Assembly: GCA_965656535.1 (NCBI GenBank)
Contig: CBFHKX010000003.1
Span: 101,595 to 165,594, forward strand
Source: Lishizhenia sp.
GTDB taxonomy: Bacteria > Bacteroidota > Bacteroidia > Flavobacteriales_D > Crocinitomicaceae
Direction of reading: 5' to 3'
Length of the DNA stretch: 64,000 nucleotides
This document shows positions 35,144 through 46,456 of this stretch, piece after piece. Numbering within the stretch: position 1 is the stretch's first letter; each line of letters starts with the position of its first letter. The notes beneath the pieces are model-generated. The model searched no databases. It had not been told where the DNA came from and was given only the letters and a program-made list of their open reading frames with translations. Both the position numbers and the translations under genes were made by a program.

Positions 35144-35812
35144 GTGGAAATAACCGAAGAAAAAAATAAAAAAAAAGCATGGCCAACAAAAGATGTTATG
35201 CAGCAGATATATGCTTTAAATTTTTGGGGAGAAAATAATACACCATTTTATTCTGGCGAAGGTTCGCATGCAGAACAGATTGTAGCGCCTTACATAAAAG
35301 TAGTACAGTCTTTTTTAAATGAGTTTAAAGGTCAGTTATCTATTTGTGATTTGGGATGTGGAGATTTTAATATTGGTCAACAATTACTTCCGTTTACCAA
35401 GCAATATACAGCCGTAGATATAGTTCCGGAGTTAATAACCTACAATAAAAAGAAGTTTAAGTATTCTAATTTAACTTTCTCACTATTAGATATTTCTAAT
35501 GATTTATTACCCGTTGCAGATTGTGCTATTATTAGGCAAGTTTTACAACATCTATCAAATTCAGAAGTTAAGCGTATTGTTAAGAAATTAAATCAATACA
35601 AGTATATTATCTTAACTGAGCATATATCAAACGGTGATTTTGTTCCCAATATTGATATTATTTCAGGAAGAGGAATTCGCTTAAAGAAGAATAGCGGAAT
35701 TAATCTATTTGAACCGCCATTTAATTTTAAGGCAAAACATCTTAAAAAAATAGTAACTGTAAACCTAAATGGCAAGAAAGGAAGGATAGTAACATGGCTA
35801 ATTACGCTTTAA
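35144..35812 (+). CDS. Class I SAM-dependent methyltransferase
   Basis: YSGEGSH, CDLGCGDF, VDIV and RQVLQHL motifs. Confidence 0.82.
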   Translation: MEITEEKNKKKAWPTKDVMQQIYALNFWGENNTPFYSGEGSHAEQIVAPYIKVVQSFLNEFKGQLSICDLGCGDFNIGQQLLPFTKQYTAVDIVPELITYNKKKFKYSNLTFSLLDISNDLLPVADCAIIRQVLQHLSNSEVKRIVKKLNQYKYIILTEHISNGDFVPNIDIISGRGIRLKKNSGINLFEPPFNFKAKHLKKIVTVNLNGKKGRIVTWLITL

Positions 35813-37109
35813 GATACTGTCTTAAATAACTTTTTGTAAATAATTTAAAACCTGTTTTTTTTGCGTAAAATAAATAATCATTTTCAATCTTAAGTAATTG
35901 TTCAGGTTCTCTTTGAAGTAAACTAAAGATTTGATATTCAATTAGTTTATAAAAAATAAAGGTGTAGTCTTTATATGAGTCATTAAATTTAAAAGTATTG
36001 ATTAATTCAAATGATTTTTTCGCTTCTAGGAGTCGATCTTCACATAAATTCTGAAGAGAATAACCCAATAATACAATAGCGTGTGTGTTATGTCCACTCC
36101 AGTTTGTAGGTTTTAATAGCTCTTCGTAATATTCTTTAATTAATATGGCGATTTTCTTTATATCCTTTACAATTAGTAGAGCAGGAAAAATTTCAATACT
36201 AAATAAGAAAATATCGGTTTCTTTCTTGCGCAAGTACACCATTTGACTATTCCAAATTTCTTCATATTTATCAGTGTTATTCTGCTCTTTATAAAACATT
36301 AAATTATAAGCAAAGCATCTTCCTTTAAGTACAGGGTGAAAATTATTTTTAATTCTATCGATGGAAATTTCTGCTAAATTCTTATCAGCTGATAAATAAG
36401 TGTTAAATCCTAATAGTAATTCATAGAATAGTTTTTCGTGACTCTCATTTTCAGCATACTGCAATGATGATTTGATAAATTTACCATAATACCCATTCAA
36501 ATAAGAATAGTCTATAAACCAATGTAAAACATTTTCTCTGAAGCTGATTATCGGAGTTAAAACAGTAATGATTTCGTTTATAGTTGTAGAATTAAGACTA
36601 CGAAACAAAAGACAAATTTGCGCAGCAAACTTTAGTCGATTTGATTCATCAAATTGCAGTAATTTAGGATCAAAAAGTATTGGGAGCGTTTCAATTTCGT
36701 TTCTGTAGACTTTAGATTTAATGATGTTAGACAATTTCATATGAAATTGAAAGGTGTGTATTTGTGTGTGTAGCCAGTCTAAATCTTCTTGAGTTATTTT
36801 AGTGTTAAGTTCAATATTCAGTACTTTTTTCCACGCATACCATTCGAGGTCACTTGCATAGGTTTTTAAATAGGCTCCGTAATTTTTATAACCTAAATAT
36901 TGACAAAGGCTATTAATTGTTTTTCTTGAGGGGTTGGTTTGAGGCAAAAAACCAAAAAATCTTCGTAATGTATTATAGCTTATTTTTTCATTAATAGCAT
37001 ATTCAACGGCATCTTGAAATAGCTTTAAGTCTGCAACGGATGATACTGGCGCACCAAATTGCCTGTATAAATCAAGTTTTAATTGCTGAAAGTTTTCTTT
37101 GTTATACAT
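35802..37109 (-). CDS. Hypothetical protein with an N-terminal HTH-like segment and a helical C-terminal domain
   Basis: N-terminal ISYNTLRRFFGFL..PSRKTINSLCQYLGY resembles Bacteroidota XRE-like regulators. The rest is helical with no recognisable motif. Confidence 0.6.
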   Translation of the reverse strand: MYNKENFQQLKLDLYRQFGAPVSSVADLKLFQDAVEYAINEKISYNTLRRFFGFLPQTNPSRKTINSLCQYLGYKNYGAYLKTYASDLEWYAWKKVLNIELNTKITQEDLDWLHTQIHTFQFHMKLSNIIKSKVYRNEIETLPILFDPKLLQFDESNRLKFAAQICLLFRSLNSTTINEIITVLTPIISFRENVLHWFIDYSYLNGYYGKFIKSSLQYAENESHEKLFYELLLGFNTYLSADKNLAEISIDRIKNNFHPVLKGRCFAYNLMFYKEQNNTDKYEEIWNSQMVYLRKKETDIFLFSIEIFPALLIVKDIKKIAILIKEYYEELLKPTNWSGHNTHAIVLLGYSLQNLCEDRLLEAKKSFELINTFKFNDSYKDYTFIFYKLIEYQIFSLLQREPEQLLKIENDYLFYAKKTGFKLFTKSYLRQYLKA

Positions 37110-37343: not shown

Positions 37344-37643
37344 CTATCTGCACTTGTTTAGTGCTTGCATTAAGGCTTCAGTAAATTGTTTTTGACCTTC
37401 TATGTTGCTATATCTTTGTTGTATCGCATCTTCTTCGTTTTGAGCTCTTTTTAAAAGTTGAATGCTTTTGGGTAGGGCAGTAGTGTCCCCATCAATGGTC
37501 TTTTGAATTAAATGTTGAGCTTTACATTTAAGGGTTGCAATTTTCTCGGCATCTTTCTCTAAAGAGCTAGAACAAGAGGTTGAAAATATTAGAAGCAAAT
37601 ATAAAAAAGGCGCTAGATTTTTTAACTGTCTCATTATTCTCAA
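37344..37643 (-). CDS. Small hypothetical lipoprotein
   Basis: Lipobox FSTSC; helical body with two further Cys. Confidence 0.7.
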   Translation of the reverse strand: MRIMRQLKNLAPFLYLLLIFSTSCSSSLEKDAEKIATLKCKAQHLIQKTIDGDTTALPKSIQLLKRAQNEEDAIQQRYSNIEGQKQFTEALMQALNKCR

Positions 37644-37681: not shown

Positions 37682-37753
37682 GCCCATTTTTAGCCCATAA
37701 AAAAAGAAACAACATTTAATGCTGTTTCTTTTTAATGGTGTTTCGTGTAAAAA
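37682..37753 (-). repeat. Copy A of a ~72-bp intergenic cassette (terminator plus ATGGGCT-N4-ATGGGC motif)
   Basis: About 90% identical to 38547-38619 by manual alignment. Confidence 0.85.
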
Positions 37754-37758
37754 TTAGG

Positions 37759-38490
37759 TTAGAATTTGTACATGTCTTTAGCTTGTTCCATAGCTTCTTT
37801 TTGCATTTCTTTAGCTTGTTTCATAGCTTCCTCTTGCATTTCTTTAGCCGTTTCCATGGCTTGGTCAGTAAAATCTTTCGCATTATCCATAATGTCGCTC
37901 ACATCATCAAAACTTCCGCTATTTAATTCAGTATCTTCATCTAATTCACCATCCCATTTTGACGTTGTATTACCATTTGGATGAGTTCCAGAAATATCTG
38001 TCATGTATAATTCAAAATTAACAGTCTTATCCATAATCTTACTTGCATCACCCTCTACCATACCAAACATTGAGTTTGTTACTGTAAAATTTAATGTTAC
38101 TTCTGTTCCTGCTTCACTACCTAAGAAAGTGCTAACTTTTTCAGAATCTGTTGAAAGTTCTGGTGATCCGAAAGTCACACCGGCTGCGTCAAGTAATTTG
38201 AGACTTAGGTATCCCATACCCGGATCTTTTAAACCAATTTCTTCCTTTAATTTAAATGTAACAGGCAGAAGTATTCTTTCTGTTTCTCCGTCTTTAGAGT
38301 ATTGTAATTCATAACTGCCATCAGTTACCTCAATATAGTTAGACGCGATTCCTGGAACGAAAACGTCTTTCACTTCTAAAGTTTTTGCATTAGGTATACT
38401 ACTGCCACAACTTGTAACGCTAGAAAGCACAATAGAAGACAGCAAAACTGTTCCAGCTAAACTCCAAATTTTTTCTTTAAATTTTTTCAT
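37759..38490 (-). CDS. Hypothetical lipoprotein with C-terminal 11-residue amphipathic repeats
   Basis: Start MKKFKEK (38490), lipobox SVTSC, tail QAMETAKEMQE/EAMKQAKEMQK/EAMEQAKDMYK. Confidence 0.75.
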   Translation of the reverse strand: MKKFKEKIWSLAGTVLLSSIVLSSVTSCGSSIPNAKTLEVKDVFVPGIASNYIEVTDGSYELQYSKDGETERILLPVTFKLKEEIGLKDPGMGYLSLKLLDAAGVTFGSPELSTDSEKVSTFLGSEAGTEVTLNFTVTNSMFGMVEGDASKIMDKTVNFELYMTDISGTHPNGNTTSKWDGELDEDTELNSGSFDDVSDIMDNAKDFTDQAMETAKEMQEEAMKQAKEMQKEAMEQAKDMYKF

Positions 38491-38546
38491 AATGTATATT
38501 TTGATTTTGGTTGACACAAATAAACTGCGAAAAAATATATATCGCT

Positions 38547-38619
38547 GCCCATTTTTAGCCCATCACAAAAAGAAACAACATGTAATGTTCTTTCTTTTTA
38601 ATGGTGTTTGGTGTAAAAA
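38547..38619 (-). repeat. Copy B of the ~72-bp intergenic cassette
   Basis: gcccatttttagcccat..aaaaagaaacaacat..tttctttttaatggtgttt.gtgtaaaaa, 865 bp from copy A. Confidence 0.85.
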
Positions 38620-38622
38620 AAA

Positions 38623-38751
38623 TTAATATCCGCCTAATCCTTTCATCATTTCTTCTGTCTGCTTTTGCATATCTTCTGACATTTTTTTGGATTGTTCTTG
38701 GATATCTTTTACCATTTCTTGAGCCTCAATGGCATATTCATTTCCATAGTT
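38623..38751 (-). pseudogene. 3' remnant of a paralogue of the 37759-38490 lipoprotein
   Basis: Manual translation gives NYGNEYAIEAQEMVKDIQEQSKKMSEDMQKQTEEMMKGLGGY*, with the same Met/Gln/Lys/Glu heptad-like tail. It is followed by the same terminator cassette and has no 5' part. Confidence 0.65.
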
Positions 38752-38934: not shown

Positions 38935-40893
38935 TTAATTTATTACGTATTTTAAATGCTCATAAATCATAACCATTGCAAGTGTATCTAGTTCGCAATA
39001 CTTGAGTAAAGCATTTGAAATTTCTTCTCTTTCATTCTCTTCCATATCATTAAATTGCAACTTTCCATAGGCCGTAAGAGCTACTCCACCATCAGATATG
39101 TTCTCGAGTCCTGAAATTATATTATCTTTTTGCTTTTCTGTCCAATTTGAAAATAGACTTGGAAGCTGTTTATAGGGATCTATAAAACCATCCTTTTCTT
39201 TTCTTAACCATATATGTGAATCATTGTAGTTCAAGCTAGAAAGATTTATCGAAATAATAGGCTGTGTATATTTTTCTTGTAAAAACGAACATGTGCTTAA
39301 TATTGCAGGTAATATTGCTTTAATTGAGTTAGATCCTTTTGTTAGTGGATGGTAGTAATACCGTAACATGATTTGTCTAAGATCAACGAAATTTCTTTTC
39401 GGATTCCATTTTTGAACTACATTTCCGGTTGGAGTCGCGATGTTCCTAATAAATTGAATGAGTTTATGTCTGTCTTTATAATCACTTTGTTCTAATTGTT
39501 CTTTAATTGTATTCAAAATACTGTTTTCATGAGAAGCAAATCTGAAAATTGTACCATTGTCATGATCTATTGCATCTTTTAGAGATTCGATAAATTTAAA
39601 ATTTGGGAAGTCTCCTGTTTTGTTATTTAGATACTGTGATTTGTGTGTAATTTTGCCGTTCTCGTCTATCTGGTGATGTGAAAATTGAAAAGCAACTTGT
39701 TCATAGGGTTTCATGTTTTTTGTAAATGGAATTGCCACAGCACTGGTTTCAAAATCAATAAAATGAAGTGGAAACTTCCATTTTTTCATCTCTTTACTTA
39801 ATTCTTTACAATTAATAAATGGTTGCTTATCTTCAGATACCGCTTTTTTTATTTGAATCCATCTTCTATCGATGGCAGTCAGTTGTTTGGAGGTATTTGT
39901 TGTATTGAAGTCAGCTTTATTTACAGTTTTAAGTAAGATTTTGCCTTTGTTTAAAAATTTTTGACCTCTGAAATTCCATATTTCAAAAATATTGGGTAAT
40001 TCAAATTCTTTTTCTGATATGTTATGCATTGTTTTGAAACAATTTTTAAAGCCTGAGAGCTTGCCTAATTTTTCTTCTTCTGGGTTTGTTTTAAATTCAC
40101 AGTTCTTACATGAGCTGTAGTTAGTTGTCCAATTTGGAAAAGTATTGTTTTTTATTGTTTTTTCGAATTGATTTAGTGCTTTAGAAAATGTTAGCGATCC
40201 TTTATAGGATTGTTCGTTTAATAAAATTTCTTTGATCAAATTAGAAATGTTCACTTTTGTCAGTACAGATGTTTTTATTGCAGTTTCTGGCGAAATCAGA
40301 GTTTTTATATTTTTCCTTTCTTTTCCCTTTTTAGGTAGTCTAATAAGTTGATTCAGTCCGTTAATTGTTGATTTCTTTGATTTATCAGCTAGAATAAAAT
40401 ATGACTCAATTTTTAAATGAGGCATGCAGCGTTGAATTACGTGTTTTTGAAAAGCAACATCGAAAAAATATGGCTTCCAATTACTGTAAATCTTTCCGTT
40501 CTTGCCAATAAAAGAATTTGAATTAGTTGAGTCAAATGATTTAGCTTTAACTTCTATTAGCTTTAAGGTATTGCCTTTTTTAACAATTATGTCGCTCATG
40601 ACGAACAAATTATTCATTAAGAAAGATGCTTCATATATGACTACTTCATCTTGTTTCAATAGAGTTTTGGTTTCTTCCCAAGCAGATTGGTAATCACCTC
40701 GTTGGGCTTCTAAAAAAAAACCATTAGGGTAGTGCATTCTGGCTAAGGCTTCGACTTGAAATCCACCCTCTGCCAAAGAAGCTAAGAATGAATCTTCGGA
40801 AGATCTATTAGCGTAGCGGTCATCAAAAGTATACACGATTTTATTAGGACAACTTAGACCTATTTTAAATTTGGATTTTGTAAGTACCTTCAT
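38935..40893 (-). CDS. DUF2779-domain protein: PD-(D/E)xK (Cas4/RecB-like) nuclease fused to an RNase H-like domain
   Basis: LTKSKFKIGLSCP N-terminus, SDIIVK..LIEVK, CKNCEF..C, FIDFET..PYEQVAFQFSHH, GSNSIKAILPA and LLKYCELDTLAMV. Confidence 0.82.
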   Translation of the reverse strand: MKVLTKSKFKIGLSCPNKIVYTFDDRYANRSSEDSFLASLAEGGFQVEALARMHYPNGFFLEAQRGDYQSAWEETKTLLKQDEVVIYEASFLMNNLFVMSDIIVKKGNTLKLIEVKAKSFDSTNSNSFIGKNGKIYSNWKPYFFDVAFQKHVIQRCMPHLKIESYFILADKSKKSTINGLNQLIRLPKKGKERKNIKTLISPETAIKTSVLTKVNISNLIKEILLNEQSYKGSLTFSKALNQFEKTIKNNTFPNWTTNYSSCKNCEFKTNPEEEKLGKLSGFKNCFKTMHNISEKEFELPNIFEIWNFRGQKFLNKGKILLKTVNKADFNTTNTSKQLTAIDRRWIQIKKAVSEDKQPFINCKELSKEMKKWKFPLHFIDFETSAVAIPFTKNMKPYEQVAFQFSHHQIDENGKITHKSQYLNNKTGDFPNFKFIESLKDAIDHDNGTIFRFASHENSILNTIKEQLEQSDYKDRHKLIQFIRNIATPTGNVVQKWNPKRNFVDLRQIMLRYYYHPLTKGSNSIKAILPAILSTCSFLQEKYTQPIISINLSSLNYNDSHIWLRKEKDGFIDPYKQLPSLFSNWTEKQKDNIISGLENISDGGVALTAYGKLQFNDMEENEREEISNALLKYCELDTLAMVMIYEHLKYVIN

Positions 40894-41660
40894 TGTAGTT
40901 TGTATTCGAATCCAATCAATAAATCAGAATCATAATTTTGAATATCAATATAAGGTGTGTTGTGATAACGATACAATCCTTTTAAATAGAATGAAACTTT
41001 TTCTAAATCATAGTAAAATCTAGGTTCAATAAATATTCTAAAATCATTCTTTTGTGCAGCGTTTAATTGAAAGTAAGTAACCATTAGAAATCTACATTTT
41101 TTCTTAAGGTGAAATTGAGAATAAGAGGATAGATTGAGTCTTATATTTTCAATAGTTAGTAATGAATTGTTTTTTTTTTGGTAAACCTCGTTTTCGTAGA
41201 ACACACCATAACCAATGTCAAAATAATTGTTCGATGATTTTTTTTTAAGCAGAGCTTGTCTAAAGCCAGCACCTGAAACGAGTCTTTTGTTGAGTTGAAG
41301 AGATAAGGCGTTTTGTAATTGAAAAAAAGTGTAAAAAGAATTTTTTCGAACAAATAGATTGTATCTAAGTTGTCCGCTTATATCAGAGGATATTTTATTC
41401 TTCTTTTCAGATAAAAAATCATAATTTACAAAAGCTCTTACAAGGTGATTATTTTTTTTAAAACCACTCAAAACAGTGCTATTGAATTGAAATAGATTAA
41501 TATTACCTGATTTAAAATCGCCTTCTGCATTGAGGCTAAGGAAAATACTACTGTCAATTTCCTTCATTAGAGTTTCTGTATTTATTATTGCCTGGCTAAG
41601 GGAATATTTTATAAAAAAGAAGTTGCCTAAAATAGATAGAATAAGAATGGAAACTCTCAT
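40890..41660 (-). CDS. DUF481-like outer-membrane beta-barrel protein
   Basis: Signal peptide (..YSLS/QAIINTE), alternating beta strands, terminal LIGFEYKL. ATGA and TAATG overlaps with both neighbours. Confidence 0.7.
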   Translation of the reverse strand: MRVSILILSILGNFFFIKYSLSQAIINTETLMKEIDSSIFLSLNAEGDFKSGNINLFQFNSTVLSGFKKNNHLVRAFVNYDFLSEKKNKISSDISGQLRYNLFVRKNSFYTFFQLQNALSLQLNKRLVSGAGFRQALLKKKSSNNYFDIGYGVFYENEVYQKKNNSLLTIENIRLNLSSYSQFHLKKKCRFLMVTYFQLNAAQKNDFRIFIEPRFYYDLEKVSFYLKGLYRYHNTPYIDIQNYDSDLLIGFEYKLQ

Positions 41661-41986
41661 TATCTTACTCTTTTCATTCGTTCTCTCGCTCTTTTGATAT
41701 CTTCTCGAAAACCTTTAATTTTATCACGATACGATACTATTTGGTCTTTCTCTCTTTTTATCTGTCTAGCATACGAATCCCAATCTCTCTTTTTTTGAGC
41801 CCTAATTGAATGTCTAGCTGCAGTAGAAGAAGCATTTTTAAGCTTTCTCGCGAAACGATCTGTATCTCGACTTTTTCTAATTTTAATTTTTGCAATATCT
41901 TCTTTGCAAGATGCAATTTTGGATTTTATTCTGTCAATATCTCTTTTATAGCCTTCTATTTGTCGCTTGATATATTCTTTGCTCAT
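41660..41986 (-). CDS. Small highly basic coiled-coil protein (108 aa)
   Basis: Heptad pattern (IEGYKRDIDRIKSKIASCKEDI..IKREKDQIVSYRDKIKGFREDIKR), Lys/Arg-rich. Confidence 0.7.
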   Translation of the reverse strand: MSKEYIKRQIEGYKRDIDRIKSKIASCKEDIAKIKIRKSRDTDRFARKLKNASSTAARHSIRAQKKRDWDSYARQIKREKDQIVSYRDKIKGFREDIKRARERMKRVR

Positions 41987-41997
41987 ATTTTATGTTT

Positions 41998-42750
41998 TCA
42001 TAAATTGTAAGTAATGGGGTTAGAAGCACCCCTTTTTTTCTTATGTGCAATAGATTTGTTGATATACATTGATCGAACATTTTCAGGTGCAATTTTTCCA
42101 TTAAAACCATACCCCATATAAATCTTCCCTTTTTTTCTTCCTGATTTATAAGGTCGTTCTGTTTGATACCAATGATCAACTTCAAAAACCTCTACAATTA
42201 GCCCTTTGTATTCACTTAAAACATATTTTAACTTCCCATCCCGTGGGTCAGACATTCGCCAAGTCTCTTTGGTCGCGTTGTATATTTTTTCTTCACCTGA
42301 TGCATGTTTATAACTTCCATTTATATTAATGATTACAAAATCACTAGGAATGCGGTTTAATGGAGTTGCATTATATTTTCTTATAATTTCAGAAGCACTC
42401 ATTAACCCGTTTTCAATAGAATTTATTCCACCTTGTAAATTCCCTCTTCTAAATGAACTAAAACTAGGTATGAATTTAAAGGTGTCAAGAAGTGAAGCCT
42501 CGATATTAAATGCAGTTTTTTCATTTAGTCCATGTCTAACTATAACATGTTTTATTTCTTTTCCCTTTTTGAGAAATTCTTGGATGGTATCAAGTTTTTC
42601 AGTGCCAGAATTTCCATTTTTTGCATTTTCTAAATGGTTAAAAACTCTATTTCCTTTTCCTTTTCCAACATAAAAAGGAAGATCCGTTTCAGGGTCTAGA
42701 AGCAAATACACGTAATACTGAAGTTCTTCAATAGTTTTAGGGTCAAACAT
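41998..42750 (-). CDS. LEM-3-like GIY-YIG nuclease domain protein
   Basis: YYVYLLLDPETDLPFYVGKGKGNRVFNH, IVRHGL..AFNIEASL. Confidence 0.85.
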   Translation of the reverse strand: MFDPKTIEELQYYVYLLLDPETDLPFYVGKGKGNRVFNHLENAKNGNSGTEKLDTIQEFLKKGKEIKHVIVRHGLNEKTAFNIEASLLDTFKFIPSFSSFRRGNLQGGINSIENGLMSASEIIRKYNATPLNRIPSDFVIININGSYKHASGEEKIYNATKETWRMSDPRDGKLKYVLSEYKGLIVEVFEVDHWYQTERPYKSGRKKGKIYMGYGFNGKIAPENVRSMYINKSIAHKKKRGASNPITYNL

Positions 42751-42755
42751 ATTTC

Positions 42756-43151
42756 TTATATAATGTTATCTTGAATGATTTTTTTTATCTTTTTTGCATC
42801 TCGAATAAAAAAATGCTTAGCTCTTATGCTCTCGTTTCCTTCGCTTGAGATAATTATAGCAGAACGTATAACTCCACGATCAATTTTTACATAAGAAATA
42901 CTAGAAAAGGAGAGAAGTGATCTATCTATTCCAATAAGGTATTTATTTCTTTTTTCGTAAGTTACTCCTATCTGATCTAGTATTATTTTATCTGGCGTAA
43001 GCAGATGGCCTCCTACAAAAATACTAGACGAAAACACATACCTAAAATTGCTCGCGTTACTTTGTTCTTTGGGTATTTTAACTTTATTACCGCACTTTGA
43101 ACAAAAATTGCCATCGGATATATTTAGAAATCCACAATTACTACAATACAT
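42756..43151 (-). CDS. Zinc-ribbon plus PH-like domain protein
   Basis: MYCSNCG..NFCSKCG, then a beta-rich domain (TPDKIILDQIGVTYEKR..ISYVKIDRGV..IIISS) ending in a helix. Confidence 0.7.
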   Translation of the reverse strand: MYCSNCGFLNISDGNFCSKCGNKVKIPKEQSNASNFRYVFSSSIFVGGHLLTPDKIILDQIGVTYEKRNKYLIGIDRSLLSFSSISYVKIDRGVIRSAIIISSEGNESIRAKHFFIRDAKKIKKIIQDNII

Positions 43152-43152
43152 T

Positions 43153-43512
43153 CTAATCTCTTGCAGCGTTTCCTAGCGTAAGATCGTTGTCAATTAAATG
43201 CTTCGCTGATTTATCTTTAATTTGAACTTTGACTCCAAATGTATTTTCAAATAAATCTTCCACTTCTCCAACTTTCATACTAGCTTTAATTTTTAAATCT
43301 GCTTTACTCGATGTATTCACAGATTTTGTTGTTTTTTTGTTTAGGGCAGCCAATGTTAAATCACCTTCTGCAATTCTATTTCCTTTGTAAAAAACTAATG
43401 CTAAATTAAAACTTGATTTAAAATCCTTTGATATCGTTTTTAGTTTTTTATTCGGAGCAACAGAAAACTCCGCTTTATTAAATCTGTCTTTGATGTTGTT
43501 CAGTAATCCCAT
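43153..43512 (-). CDS. Small protein with two ubiquitin-like (beta-grasp-like) repeats, paralogue 2
   Basis: Two internal repeats; aligns end to end with 43567-43872. The fold call is by eye. Confidence 0.65.
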   Translation of the reverse strand: MGLLNNIKDRFNKAEFSVAPNKKLKTISKDFKSSFNLALVFYKGNRIAEGDLTLAALNKKTTKSVNTSSKADLKIKASMKVGEVEDLFENTFGVKVQIKDKSAKHLIDNDLTLGNAARD

Positions 43513-43526
43513 TGTTTTATTTTAAT

Positions 43527-43559
43527 TTATTGAGCCCAGTTGAAATTTGGGCTCAATAA
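43527..43559. other. Perfect 12-bp inverted repeat between the two paralogues
   Basis: ttattgagccca-N9-tgggctcaataa. Confidence 0.8.
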
Positions 43560-43566
43560 TATATGT

Positions 43567-43872
43567 TTATAATTTTCCTGCTTGAGTCAATGTCATTGAG
43601 TTATCAGCCAATTTACTATCATCGGCGTTAGAGATTTGAACTTTTATACCAAAAGTTTCTTTAAAATAACGTTCAACATTTTCTACTCTACTTCTTGCTC
43701 CTAATTCAAGAGATCCACCTGGGTCGTTTGTTTTAGATAAGTCAGTAATTTTCATTTTGTCATCAGCAAATTTTGCTCCTTTGTACATTCTGATGTTACA
43801 GTTAAACTCTTTTTCAAACTGTTTTTTGATACTGTTTACTGTACTTGCTTTGGTTACTTTAATAGTCGCCAT
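43567..43872 (-). CDS. Small protein with two ubiquitin-like (beta-grasp-like) repeats, paralogue 1
   Basis: IKVTKASTVNSIKKQFEKEFN..YKG..ADDKMKI / LELGARSRVENVERYFKETFGIKVQI..ADNSMTL. Confidence 0.65.
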   Translation of the reverse strand: MATIKVTKASTVNSIKKQFEKEFNCNIRMYKGAKFADDKMKITDLSKTNDPGGSLELGARSRVENVERYFKETFGIKVQISNADDSKLADNSMTLTQAGKL

Positions 43873-43938
43873 GTATTTTGTTTTAAATTTTGTCTACTTC
43901 TTTTTAGGGTAGTGTTTCGACTTATTTCTACCGATTTG

Positions 43939-45747
43939 TTAATTTGTTATTCCTGATGTAATATCGTCTAACATAGATTTATACCTTTCGCCTAATTCAC
44001 TATATATATTATAGTCTATTACAAGGTCTTTTTGGTCTGATATAAAAAGATTCTCACTTTCTTCAAGTCCATATTTAGATAAAATAAGTTGATATATTTC
44101 GTTCACTTTACCAGTATTGCTTTTTACCCAAATTTTCATTCCCATTGCTTTTTTAGATGGGTTAGAACAATAAATAAGTTGTTGATTTCCTCGCCCTATT
44201 CGAGTTTCATCATTGAATGAAGTACCGGTTTTGGCAAATGAAATTCTATATTTATTTGGTTGTTCTGTTTGCTTGTTACTCAAAGGGTTCCATAGATTTC
44301 CATAATTAATAACAGCTTGATCTGGATAGCCAGCTTCGGATAATTGAAGCAGTTTTGTTTCTACTCCATCAAAAATTGTTTTGTTGCCAACTTTTTGAAC
44401 TGCTTGCTTGGTTTCCACATCATCTTCTACACTTGTAATAGATGCAAAAGCCATCGCGTTTTCGAGTTCTTCCTCCAATGAGTCTTTATATTTATCTCTT
44501 AATAGGTTCAATAGTTCTAAGATCGCGAATGCCCTTGATTTTAGGTATGAATCGGTTTGGCAAGCTCCCCATGTAACTTGTTCCCACTCTTCATCAATTA
44601 GTTCGGATTCACCAAACTTTTTAATTTTTTCTTGAATTTCATCCCACTCGACTCCAAATTTGTTCCCGAAGCCTTTTGTCCATTGAGTAAAATTTGGACT
44701 TTGGGTTAGTAACCTGAAAATTTTCGGATAAGAAATTTGAATTCCTAATACTGCAAATAGCATGAAATCTTCTCCCTTAGGTTGTTCTTCATCAACCTCT
44801 ATTTCTCTTAAGTGATTAATTAGACTAAAAGAGTTTAGGTATCTTTTAAGACTTCGCGGGTTGTAACCAATACTAAAACGAACCGCTTTCGCGTATAGAT
44901 CTTTTTCATCTTCATTTATTTTAATTCCTAGTTCATGTAATTTTTCTACTAAGAAATTTTCGATGTCATAAGTTCCTATTGGCATAGAAAAAGGAACCTG
45001 TATAATTTTGTCAAAGAAGGATCTAAACTCCCTTTCATTTTCTTCTGTTTTAGGTCCAAACTTACTTTCTAATCCCTTTACAACTACGTCATAGTCGATG
45101 GCAAGTATAAAAACACAATTTGGAATATCAAATATATTTTTTAGTGCTTCTAACACCTCTACAGCGTCTCCTGGTGGTATACGATCTAAGTCATCAACAA
45201 AAAATACTACTTTTTTTACTGGGTTTTTTTCATCATTAATCAAATCTTTTATAAGGTCGCTGATAAGTGCTTTAATTTCAGCAATTTCTGCCGTATTTTT
45301 TTGTTTAACTTCTCCTTGTGCTGCATTCTGAACATCTACACCTGTCTGCTTGGCTACAACTTGGTTCGCTAAACCTCCTAGAAATTTTGCTGCAGATTTA
45401 AATTTTGCTTTACTTTCATCTTTTAAAGTCCAAATACCTCTTTCTTCGCAGGAAATTTTTAATTTTTCCAACATTCCTCTTAGTACACCTGGCGTTGTTT
45501 CATTTGCACCACGAAACATACTGTATTCCCAAGTGTTCACCCACGAACATGCAATATTATTTTTATTGAAATCTTCTAAAAGAAGAGACATCAGTGAGGT
45601 TTTTCCTGTACCCCATTCACCTTGTAAACCCACAGTTATAGGTGTATCACTAGATATAATAAAATTAGAGAGTGCTGCGCTATACTTCTCTACCTTTAAT
45701 AGATCTTGAGATTTTGTTGATATTGGCTTATCTGTAATTGACCCCAT
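43939..45747 (-). CDS. KAP family P-loop NTPase with an uncharacterised C-terminal domain
   Basis: VGLQGEWGTGKTSLM (Walker A), VNTWEY, VFFVDDLDR (Walker B), FFDKIIQVPFSMP and NPRSLKRYLN. Confidence 0.9.
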   Translation of the reverse strand: MGSITDKPISTKSQDLLKVEKYSAALSNFIISSDTPITVGLQGEWGTGKTSLMSLLLEDFNKNNIACSWVNTWEYSMFRGANETTPGVLRGMLEKLKISCEERGIWTLKDESKAKFKSAAKFLGGLANQVVAKQTGVDVQNAAQGEVKQKNTAEIAEIKALISDLIKDLINDEKNPVKKVVFFVDDLDRIPPGDAVEVLEALKNIFDIPNCVFILAIDYDVVVKGLESKFGPKTEENEREFRSFFDKIIQVPFSMPIGTYDIENFLVEKLHELGIKINEDEKDLYAKAVRFSIGYNPRSLKRYLNSFSLINHLREIEVDEEQPKGEDFMLFAVLGIQISYPKIFRLLTQSPNFTQWTKGFGNKFGVEWDEIQEKIKKFGESELIDEEWEQVTWGACQTDSYLKSRAFAILELLNLLRDKYKDSLEEELENAMAFASITSVEDDVETKQAVQKVGNKTIFDGVETKLLQLSEAGYPDQAVINYGNLWNPLSNKQTEQPNKYRISFAKTGTSFNDETRIGRGNQQLIYCSNPSKKAMGMKIWVKSNTGKVNEIYQLILSKYGLEESENLFISDQKDLVIDYNIYSELGERYKSMLDDITSGITN

Positions 45748-45830: not shown

Positions 45831-45847
45831 GCTCATTTACAGCCCAT
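45831..45847 (-). promoter_or_regulatory. Third copy of the direct-repeat motif (ATGGGCTGTAAATGAGC) upstream of the KAP gene
   Basis: gctcatttacagcccat versus gcccatttttagcccat at 37682 and 38547; same 22-nt spacing to a -7-like element. Confidence 0.6.
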
Positions 45848-46013
45848 AGAATTAGTTGAATTCTATATTTCTATTTTAAATACTTGGTATTCAAGGATGA
45901 AACATTTATATTTTTTTTGATAATCTTTTGATTTTGAAAAGTGTAATGTGTAGTCAAATTTATCTGTGAACTAGTCGTTGAGTTATGAACAAGAAATAGT
46001 AATTTTTTTAGTT

Positions 46014-46112
46014 GTTTTAAAAGCAAAAGCCCCAAGACATTGATACATCTTGAGGATTTCTGTTTCCTACGGCCATATAGGAATTATCTTTTTGGCGGTC
46101 TGGACAGGACTC
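46014..46112 (-). repeat. att-like duplicate of the tRNA-Asp 3' end plus downstream terminator
   Basis: 99 bp matching 46183-46281 with 5 mismatches; includes the last 20 nt of the tRNA (tggcggtctggac.ggactc). Confidence 0.9.
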
Positions 46113-46194
46113 TCTGTCTGCCGACTGGCAGGGAGCCAAGCTTCTTCTTAGAAGATTTGGTGATTATTATGAAAATAGAAGTGTTTTAAAAGCA

Positions 46195-46229
46195 AAATCC
46201 TCAAGACATTGATACATCTTGAGGATTTC
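46195..46229 (-). terminator. Terminator of the tRNA-Asp pair
   Basis: aaatcctcaaga-N10-tcttgaggattt hairpin. Confidence 0.75.
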
Positions 46230-46261
46230 TGTTTCCTACAGCCATATAGGACTTATCTTTT

Positions 46262-46339
46262 TGGCGGTCTGGACGGGACTCGAACCCGCGACCCCATGCG
46301 TGACAGGCATGTATTCTAACCAAGCTGAACTACCAGACC
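46262..46339 (-). tRNA. tRNA-Asp(GTC), copy 2
   Basis: GGTCTGG/CCAGACC acceptor stem, CATGC-CTGTCAC-GCATG anticodon arm, TTCGAGT T-loop, encoded CCA. Confidence 0.97.
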
Positions 46340-46378: not shown

Positions 46379-46456
46379 TGGCGGTCTGGACGGGACTCGA
46401 ACCCGCGACCCCATGCGTGACAGGCATGTATTCTAACCAAGCTGAACTACCAGACC
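46379..46456 (-). tRNA. tRNA-Asp(GTC), copy 1
   Basis: Identical 78-nt cloverleaf; -7 element caaaatta at 46486-46493 upstream. Confidence 0.97.

Follow-up and report, generated by a model that had tools for sequence, protein, structure and literature searches.

A conserved but modular gene array of Bacteroidota chromosomes as a candidate multi-gene phage-defence locus

Relation of the array to described systems

PD-T4-3, also called CMoRE, is a single-gene, autonomous type IV restriction enzyme that cuts DNA containing 5-hydroxymethylcytosine (5hmC) or glucosyl-hmC (PMC12923530). KAP NTPases with variable C-termini, EF_KAP and its relatives, act as stand-alone phage defence in Enterococcus (PMC13552941). 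The DUF2779 family joins a Cas4-like nuclease to a 3'-5' exonuclease, as in MMSYN1_0389, and the DUF2779 protein is quasi-essential in minimal Mycoplasma (PMC13621843, PMC3985635). In a 64-kb stretch of the Lishizhenia sp. contig CBFHKX010000003.1 (the whole stretch is called here the window), a CMoRE-type GIY-YIG nuclease (GIY), a KAP NTPase (KAP) and a DUF2779 nuclease (DUF2779) are encoded in one array of eight co-oriented minus-strand open reading frames (ORFs), located at 38935-45747. The array also encodes two small two-repeat proteins (Ubl1 and Ubl2), a Zn-ribbon-PH protein (ZnPH), a basic coiled-coil protein (CC) and a DUF481 outer-membrane beta-barrel (DUF481). The ORF coordinates in the window reproduce exactly the layout given in the preliminary description of this DNA: from KAP to DUF2779 the intergenic gaps are 66, 54, 1, 5 and 11 nt, followed by start/stop overlaps of 1 nt and 4 nt.

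We propose that the locus represents one arrangement of a modular, yet conserved, chromosomal array of Bacteroidota, which most likely serves in defence against phages or foreign DNA, with no single obligate eight-protein machine; to this reading as a whole we give about an even chance. The array is presented as a candidate new multi-gene phage-defence locus, not as a proven single system. Judged from the alignments, the catalytic residues are intact in the CMoRE-type nuclease, the Cas4-like/DEDD nuclease and the KAP NTPase. The CMoRE-type GIY and the KAP class were known before; what is new is the conserved operon-like array that joins them with uncharacterised partners. A match to a described system, one of the outcomes considered in the preliminary description, exists for these two genes, but no multi-gene system matched in PADLOC v2, and literature searches found no description of this gene combination.

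The GIY product is a full-length homologue of CMoRE/PD-T4-3. In addition to the Pfam LEM-3-like GIY-YIG match (1e-13), its residues 2-249 of 250 align with positions 6-253 of 256 of the PADLOC PD-T4-3 profile (PDLC04031, 1e-51), and residues 4-249 align with residues 13-259 of 262 of PDB 9u75/9u7u (3e-32; 9u75_A, 3.1e-32). The match spans both the GIY-YIG domain and the C-terminal modification-sensing domain, and the motifs Y-V-Y, FYVGKG and GNR lie opposite WYVY, FYVGKG and GNR of 9u75, although the identity is only ~30%. The catalytic residues of E. coli CMoRE are Y17, Y19, Y31 and a catalytic Arg, and the enzyme carries between alpha2 and alpha3 an autoinhibitory loop with four consecutive acidic residues, without which it is hyperactive, cleaves normal DNA and is toxic (PMC12923530). 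At this site (42570-42650, GIY residues ~40-55) the window differs from E. coli: the AADDDD loop is replaced by AKNGNSGTE, with a 4-residue deletion, and the acidic lid is absent. Block-type homologues read DAKDGKxGTEKL or similar at the loop, all of them without the acidic lid. An acidic run (EEEEDEDE, EEDENEDE and GDEDA) was found in three GIYs only, at L012:7114-7839, L118:3690-4415 and L066:9152-9916, and these three stand apart from the block, whereas lid-less GIYs occur only inside the array. Also unlike CMoRE, which stands alone, the gene lies between ZnPH and CC at gaps of at most 12 nt in dozens of loci. Two GIY subtypes can be distinguished: type A (58-91% identical to the GIY of the window) between ZnPH and CC, and type B (39-44%) directly after KAP.

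KAP is a predicted soluble NTPase with a variable C-terminus. Residues 20-312 match positions 2-291 of 293 of Pfam KAP_NTPase (2.4e-38) and include Walker A (G43-EWGTGKT-S51) and Walker B (D185-D186); G43, K49, T50, D185 and D186 are at least 95% conserved among 91 homologues, in which the C-terminal ~150 aa are variable and almost no residue past 447 reaches this level. The N-terminal KAP domain with intact Walker A/B motifs, followed by a variable C-terminal region of unknown fold, is shared with EF_KAP, the F-plasmid T7-exclusion protein PifA and the PADLOC candidate PDC-S20. Unlike these, the window KAP is without transmembrane helices, is embedded in a recurrent multi-gene neighbourhood and is unusually conserved across genera, with 72-91% identity among the best 120 of 4286 homologues. 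The PADLOC matches (PifA, 1.6e-27; PDC-S20, 7.4e-27; QatA) cover the N-terminal NTPase domain only; similarity to PifA is confined to profile positions 7-312 of 720 and does not extend over the full length. The QatABCD system also has a KAP-type ATPase, QatA, which gives a weak, domain-level match (NCBIfam, 2.7e-25), but at 89.1 bits against a cutoff of 600, and PADLOC gave no Qat match, be it QatB, QatC (QueC-like) or QatD (TatD), for the other seven array genes. A relationship of the KAP C-terminus to the Ubl repeats was rejected (hhalign probability 2%).

A second KAP NTPase of 1053 aa is encoded in the same genome outside the window (C4:134294-137452), in a context unrelated to the array; hydrophobic segments inserted in its NTPase domain place it in the classical membrane KAP type. 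Homologues of the array KAP subfamily also occur outside Bacteroidota at 50-66% identity, in Luminiphilus (L043), Chromatiales (L066), Desulfobulbales (L083/L084), Bacteriovoracaceae (L078) and a Rokubacteria bin (L025), some of these loci with DUF481, a channel-like gene, GIY or ZnPH close by, which suggests inter-phylum transfer of array parts.

The DUF2779 protein (Pfam, 1.7e-26) combines an N-terminal Cas4-like PD-(D/E)xK nuclease, with four Cys and a weak PADLOC Cas4 match at the Cys cluster, and a C-terminal DEDD-type RNase H-like exonuclease. Residues C15, D101, E114, K116, C262, C265, C285, D380, E382, Y632 and D636 are at least 95% conserved among 34 homologues. With the solo-Cas4/DUF2779 family (PF11074) it shares the two-nuclease architecture of MMSYN1_0389 and the conserved catalytic D/E/K. 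On the other hand, it has four Cas4-type cysteines, against two in the Mycoplasma protein, and its gene is linked to a restriction nuclease, while no biological role is known for the family.

ZnPH has a CxxC...CxxC pattern (Pfam DZR/Zn_ribbon, 4e-4), and in its AlphaFold2 (AF2) model (pLDDT 85) the strands lie between residues 38 and 115, followed by a helix at 116-129. Of the 50 Foldseek matches listed, nearly all are to PH or PH-like domains, the bacterial 3dcx and 3hsa among them (probability 1.0, TM-score normalised to the target 0.54-0.60), and the PH-like fold is thereby confirmed. CC gave only weak coiled-coil-type matches (Pfam, PADLOC, NCBIfam). DUF481 matches Pfam DUF481 (4.6e-5; 24.0 bits against a gathering cutoff of 21.1; residues 48-254 against positions 6-209 of 210) and begins with a segment that looks signal-like by eye.

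Ubl1 and Ubl2 are paralogues with 30% identity. Ubl1 consists of two ~45-aa beta-alpha-beta-beta-alpha repeats; Ubl2 has the same two-repeat fold, each half of ~45 aa, plus an N-terminal helix (AF2 pLDDT 77.7). Neither matched a family in Pfam, PADLOC or PHROG. The top PDB matches of Ubl2 in Foldseek, ISG15 and di-ubiquitin, are non-significant (E >= 0.08, probability <= 0.25, TM-score 0.26), and a viral structure library returned local matches of ~40 residues only (E > 0.3). The term 'ubiquitin-like' would describe, at best, a local resemblance of the models. Differently from the ubiquitin-like/Bil/Bub systems, the C-termini are QAGKL and NAARD, with no Gly-Gly tail, and no E1, E2 or JAB domain was found among the eight array genes or the recurrent neighbours. 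The Ubl module, which no Pfam model covers, belongs to a large family: a profile search gave 1864 representative clusters at 50% identity, 805 of them at E <= 1e-10. Its usual place is at the N-terminus (~105 aa) of longer proteins, where a charged linker connects it to diverse C-terminal regions (BspA-type LRR, LRR_8, RCC1, DUF6273 and many of unknown fold). Among the names given to these genes in the preliminary description, KAP, GIY-YIG, barrel and Cas4-like/DUF2779 agree with the Pfam matches and Zn-ribbon-PH with Pfam, AF2 and Foldseek, while the twin ubiquitin-like proteins are not significantly supported as to fold.

Conservation, modularity and regulation of the array

With a KAP alignment, 78 loci were collected from species-representative genomes, nearly all of them of Bacteroidota, and all their ORFs were clustered; an Ubl2-only alignment used as bait against metagenome contigs gave 80 loci, making 158 combined. 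The co-occurrence figures describe these baited samples rather than a census, with simple longest-ORF calls; the lineage counts refer to 63 dereplicated Ubl2 lineages and to those contigs whose length allowed a judgement. In the loci found with KAP, no families recur beside it other than those of the array and a 435-aa protein: DUF481 in 36 loci, Ubl in 31, the 435-aa protein in 27, GIY in 15, DUF2779 in 11, and ZnPH and CC in 9 each. The genes that flank the array in the window (glycoside-hydrolase, lipoprotein and distal genes) recur in 0 of these 78 loci. At least one partner family is present in 35 of the 41 KAP loci with at least 4 kb on both sides, most frequently the 435-aa protein and the DUF481 barrel.

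All eight families are found together in the window, in a Wenyingzhuangia metagenome-assembled genome (L009, in the same order and also behind tRNA-Asp), in L105 and in a few more loci; a Bizionia sediminis locus has seven of the eight. Dozens of marine contigs have the block Ubl1-(extra Ubl)-Ubl2-ZnPH-GIY-CC-DUF2779-(DUF481) in this order, with proteins 38-90% identical to those of the window. Among dereplicated lineages, ZnPH follows Ubl2 in 34/60, GIY is present in 30/56, CC in 32/54, DUF2779 in 25/41 and DUF481 in 10/39, and KAP lies upstream in 19/40. The median gaps are 11 nt (Ubl to ZnPH), -1 nt (ZnPH to GIY), 12 nt (GIY to CC), 38 nt (CC to DUF2779) and -1 nt (KAP to DUF481); CC lies 10-12 nt downstream of GIY in 38 loci, and a DUF481-family gene follows KAP with the -1 nt overlap in 16. 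The order and the spacing (0-40 nt) of the block Ubl1-Ubl2-ZnPH-GIY-CC-DUF2779 are maintained across 23 dereplicated lineages, with identities reaching down to 39-48% (30% for the short CC), and the identity matrices of Ubl2, ZnPH, GIY, CC and DUF2779 correlate (r 0.55-0.90); the Ubl1 column was ignored as unreliable, since paralogues were sometimes picked. The possibility raised earlier that these genes do not co-occur in other genomes is thus contradicted by their conserved order in both KAP- and Ubl2-baited loci.

The flanks vary between loci. A phage-borne array was ruled out by its near-absence from viral contigs, which gave one small contig for Ubl2 and none for KAP; PHROG families exist for KAP and GIY. 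Cultured carriers are Bizionia sediminis KCTC 42587, Flavobacterium chungnamense JCM 17068 and F. cheonanense JCM 17069. The two Flavobacterium species carry 21.8-kb loci (L014/L015) with an expanded version of the island: three KAP, seven Ubl-family and two to three 435-aa-type genes within ~21 kb, besides a K+-channel-like gene and a sodium:solute symporter.

The array is modular. Every gene, KAP included, is absent in some lineages, and each partner is absent in 40-75% of the dereplicated ones; KAP is present in 9 of the 18 contigs found with Ubl2 that extend at least 5 kb to either side. Gene positions may also change, with KAP downstream of DUF2779 in L091 and L151 and Ubl genes upstream of KAP in L023-L028. 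Common subsets are KAP with DUF481; KAP with GIY; the 435-aa gene divergent from KAP, GIY, a channel and DUF481; Ubl1, Ubl2 and CC; and KAP...ZnPH...DUF2779. Three sub-modules can be recognised: KAP, elsewhere usually translationally coupled to the DUF481 barrel; Ubl1 with a conserved stem-loop; and Ubl2-ZnPH-GIY(CMoRE)-CC-DUF2779, at 0-40 nt spacing. The links within these sub-modules are much tighter than the links between them. Extra cassettes are found between conserved genes, such as 1.7 kb between Ubl1 and Ubl2 in L111. The cassettes of sister loci include effector-like genes, in line with a defence role, namely an HNH nuclease, K+-channel-like and Castor/Pollux-RCK channel genes, a TerB-like gene and OmpA/MotB-like genes (hits to ZorB models), besides SH3/transmembrane lipoproteins and paralogues of the 435-aa protein. 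The fallback offered in the preliminary description, several modules accreted at a tRNA hotspot, is retained as far as modules are concerned, but these are linked to each other and not to tRNAs, which were found in only 14 of the 158 loci.

Directly after the Ubl1 stop codon, a stem-loop with a 13-bp perfect stem (folding energy dG -17.3 kcal/mol) is present in the window. Stem-loops with dG <= -8 occur after Ubl1 in 50 of 52 distinct spacers, and 94% of the 52 reach z < -2 (median dG -17.2, median z -5.5), against 18% of unrelated same-strand spacers; the spacers have unrelated sequences, so it is the structure that is conserved. A T-rich tail follows in 15 cases, and no such stem-loop was found in the KAP to Ubl, other Ubl to Ubl, or CC to DUF2779 spacers. 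The next start codon follows the stem-loop after only ~15-25 nt, and the genes downstream of Ubl1 would therefore depend on read-through. The element looks like an intra-array attenuator, a terminator or an RNA-stability element.

A direct repeat, ATGGGCT-N4-ATGAGC (ATGGGCTGTAAATGAGC), lies 100 nt upstream of the KAP start and is a candidate operator. The pattern ATGRGY-N5-ATGRGY has 3 matches in the window against 0.06 expected, and 5 in the 3.02-Mb genome; 3 of these 5 are in the island, each 64-100 nt upstream of a start, preceding KAP and two lipoprotein-like genes. In the related loci, 25 matches were found in 1.77 Mb, 19 of them at most 130 nt upstream of the gene that follows. This gene is in most cases KAP, Ubl1 or DUF481, and the match often lies in a divergent spacer shared with the 435-aa gene. 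Copies located 50-130 nt upstream of KAP, Ubl1 or DUF481 are present in L010, L014, L021, L049, L057, L111, L112, L123, L129 and L163. A scan for sigma-70 promoters gave no more sites than shuffled sequences, the sigma-70 model not being one of Bacteroidota promoters. The operon behind one motif-bearing promoter that was described earlier stands as to the motif, but the post-Ubl1 stem-loop splits the array, and an attenuated operon would be the more suitable description.

In 51 loci a homologue of the 435-aa protein is encoded upstream of KAP or Ubl1 in divergent orientation, at a median distance of ~155 nt. Because the motif is often in the divergent spacer shared with its gene, this protein is a reasonable candidate regulator. 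Its N-terminus (ISYNTLRRFFG...PS..TL) has, by eye only, a helix-turn-helix look, which was not confirmed: neither the single sequence nor a 27-sequence profile matched Pfam or the PDB. A paralogue of the 435-aa protein, 22% identical and with the N-terminal ISYNTLRR...TLN.L..F.G, is encoded outside the window at C5:71670-72941 of the same genome.

Alternative explanations and proposed function

Several observations weigh against a defence array of this kind. Of the eight proteins, GIY alone has a relative that has been characterised by experiment, at the low identity given above, and its modified-base specificity is not readable from sequence. PADLOC has no match for three of the eight (Ubl1, Ubl2 and ZnPH), and the matches of CC, DUF481 and DUF2779 are weak and non-significant. 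The conservation of KAP across genera is unusual for a defence gene; DUF2779 is widespread and quasi-essential in minimal Mycoplasma, which suggests roles in repair; and many accessory families belong to the envelope or to ion transport, which fits a stress regulon equally well. In addition, the frequent loss of single genes argues that the partners are not strictly interdependent, the co-variation of identities can come from simple co-inheritance, and the post-Ubl1 stem-loop of the window is without a U-tract.

The array resembles defence islands, as generally understood, in its patchy distribution, variable flanks, nuclease and membrane-effector cassettes and co-located known defence genes. 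It is possible, although doubtful, that it arose by accretion only, with independent single-gene functions, such as a KAP defence protein, a CMoRE restriction enzyme and a solo-Cas4/DUF2779, inherited or transferred as a block, no interplay, and read-through as the only shared regulation. This would agree with the independent action of CMoRE and of KAP-type proteins in other hosts, with the absence of every gene in some lineages, with the change of side of KAP and with the cassettes inserted between conserved genes; correlated divergence, moreover, is expected from linkage alone. However, an island of this type would not be expected to keep start/stop overlaps and gaps of at most 12 nt across lineages at 40-50% identity, or to conserve the block while the flanks are not conserved. 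The two GIY subtypes are each tied to array members (A to ZnPH/CC; B after KAP), and the lid-less GIYs are confined to the array. Because gene order, start/stop coupling, the shared promoter motif and the internal stem-loop are conserved, the array is operon-like rather than a loose island.

A function outside immunity, as a regulator-controlled regulon for envelope or DNA stress in which KAP works with the barrel, lipoproteins and ion channels and the nucleases serve in DNA repair, seems quite improbable. In its favour, KAP is most often accompanied by the 435-aa candidate regulator and by the DUF481 barrel, two lipoprotein genes also have the motif upstream, and the accessory genes include channels and OmpA-like, TerB-like and SH3/transmembrane proteins; the high conservation of KAP, the quasi-essential DUF2779 of the minimal cell and the virtual absence of the array from viral contigs point in the same direction. 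On the other hand, the role of the CMoRE homologue in E. coli is specifically anti-phage, and abortive-infection systems, too, often use membrane and ion effectors. The distribution is patchy (a DNA-level match to KAP was found in only 1 of 40 relatives, with no partners there), and the variable contexts with HNH and GIY-YIG nuclease cassettes are typical of defence islands.

Least probable is one obligate system, as inferred in the preliminary description, in which KAP senses infection, Ubl1, Ubl2, ZnPH and CC are adaptors, both nucleases are effectors and all eight proteins are needed: the loci with all eight families, the tight packing and the one motif-bearing promoter speak for it, but KAP is absent from half of the 18 contigs mentioned above, DUF481 is present in few lineages and the other partners each in ~55-60%, subsets (KAP+DUF481, KAP+GIY, Ubl1+Ubl2+CC, ZnPH+DUF2779) are common, DUF481 is an outer-membrane protein and the conserved stem-loop splits the array.

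For the modular defence array, which we prefer, the following mechanism may be proposed. Transcription would start at the motif-bearing promoter, possibly under the control of the 435-aa protein, and the stem-loop after Ubl1 would lower read-through, leaving KAP and Ubl1 in excess over the nucleases. By analogy with its E. coli relative, GIY may cut hypermodified (hmC-type) invading DNA, and DUF2779 may then resect the ends. KAP would act as a separate or upstream ATP-dependent sensor or effector through its variable C-terminus. More speculatively, ZnPH, CC and perhaps the Ubl proteins could give in trans the control over self-cutting that a lid-less GIY would need, or could serve in its activation. 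A bolder form of this proposal, which we regard as rather unlikely, is a new multi-component modification-dependent restriction system, widespread in Bacteroidota, where the lid-less CMoRE-type nuclease is kept inactive in trans by its translationally coupled partners ZnPH, CC and Ubl1/Ubl2, the last two in excess owing to the post-Ubl1 stem-loop, with KAP and DUF2779 as trigger and processor. In that case the Ubl module (more than 1800 clusters) would represent a new type of adaptor or sensor domain in bacterial immunity.

The present view of CMoRE/PD-T4-3 is that of an enzyme which works by itself and inhibits itself. In the array, a lid-less branch of the family is locked in a conserved block that also encodes a second nuclease and four small, uncharacterised proteins, often accompanied by KAP; should these partners regulate the nuclease or extend its action, they would represent a new mode of control for a type IV restriction enzyme. 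If the proposal is correct, it would offer the first functional handle on orphan families, namely the Ubl module, this Zn-ribbon-PH family and DUF2779/solo-Cas4, and it would inform how soluble KAP NTPases work. The array is carried by Flavobacteriia that are abundant in marine and fresh waters, and it may thus be of importance for phage-host dynamics in the ocean. Read more modestly, the array is still a clean candidate locus that is widely conserved and has cultured carriers.

Genomic setting of the array in the window

The features of the region are listed in Table 1. Every array member is single-copy in its own genome, and GC content does not distinguish the array region from its surroundings.

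Table 1. Coordinates of the array and neighbouring features in the window
Feature	Position	Strand	Description and basis
KAP NTPase	43939-45747	-	602 aa; Pfam KAP_NTPase
Ubl1	43567-43872	-	101 aa; two-repeat protein, Ubl2 paralogue
Stem-loop 3' of Ubl1	43527-43559	-	13-bp perfect stem; folding energy
Ubl2	43153-43512	-	119 aa; Ubl1 paralogue; AF2 model
ZnPH	42756-43151	-	131 aa; Pfam Zn-ribbon, PH-like fold by AF2/Foldseek
GIY (GIY-YIG nuclease)	41998-42750	-	250 aa; CMoRE/PD-T4-3 homologue
CC (basic coiled coil)	41660-41986	-	108 aa; weak coiled-coil-type matches
DUF481 outer-membrane beta-barrel	40890-41660	-	256 aa; Pfam DUF481
DUF2779 nuclease	38935-40893	-	652 aa; Pfam DUF2779
Lipoprotein-like genes (two)	37759-38517, 37344-37643	-	ORFs; motif upstream of each
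435-aa protein, candidate regulator	35802-37109	-	homologues recur beside KAP/Ubl1
Promoter motif	45831-45847	-	direct repeat; pattern search
tRNA-Asp(GTC) pair, tandem, identical	46262-46339, 46379-46456	-	ARAGORN; 79-nt exact repeat
Att-like direct repeat, two copies	46013-46112, 46182-46281	.	repeat search; 100 nt, 95% identical

The array had been placed downstream of one tRNA-Asp and an att-like repeat. The position is correct, but there are two tandem tRNA-Asp genes, and the repeat, although real, leaves the array outside its two copies, both of which are upstream of the array and enclose 69 nt only. Each copy includes ~20 nt of the tRNA-Asp 3' end together with the terminator hairpin. 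A DNA search of the window found the tRNA 3' end in 3 copies, none elsewhere, and no third copy of the att-like repeat. The array adjoins a scar-like tRNA duplication and is not inside an att-bounded element. A tRNA-targeted integrative element was ruled out by the short distance enclosed and by the low frequency of tRNAs among the related loci. No recombinase family was found among the recurrent neighbours of these loci, the scan for integrases not having covered the whole window.

In the comparison with the closest genomes for an empty site, the tRNA-Asp region of G002 is not syntenic with the window flanks, and the single relative with a DNA-level match to KAP (G030) has a 58%-identical KAP with no partner families at the locus. 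For these reasons the borders of the island cannot be set by comparison.

Downstream of the array, the motif is present as ATGGGCTAAAAATGGGC before each of the two lipoprotein-like genes (38547-38563 and 37682-37698). These genes have no homologue in any of the 158 related loci; they are probably in the same regulon as the array, but as island-specific cargo. A cassette of ~72 bp, containing a terminator hairpin and the motif, is duplicated 865 bp apart (37682-37753 and 38547-38619), and a headless lipoprotein fragment lies at ~38623-38751.

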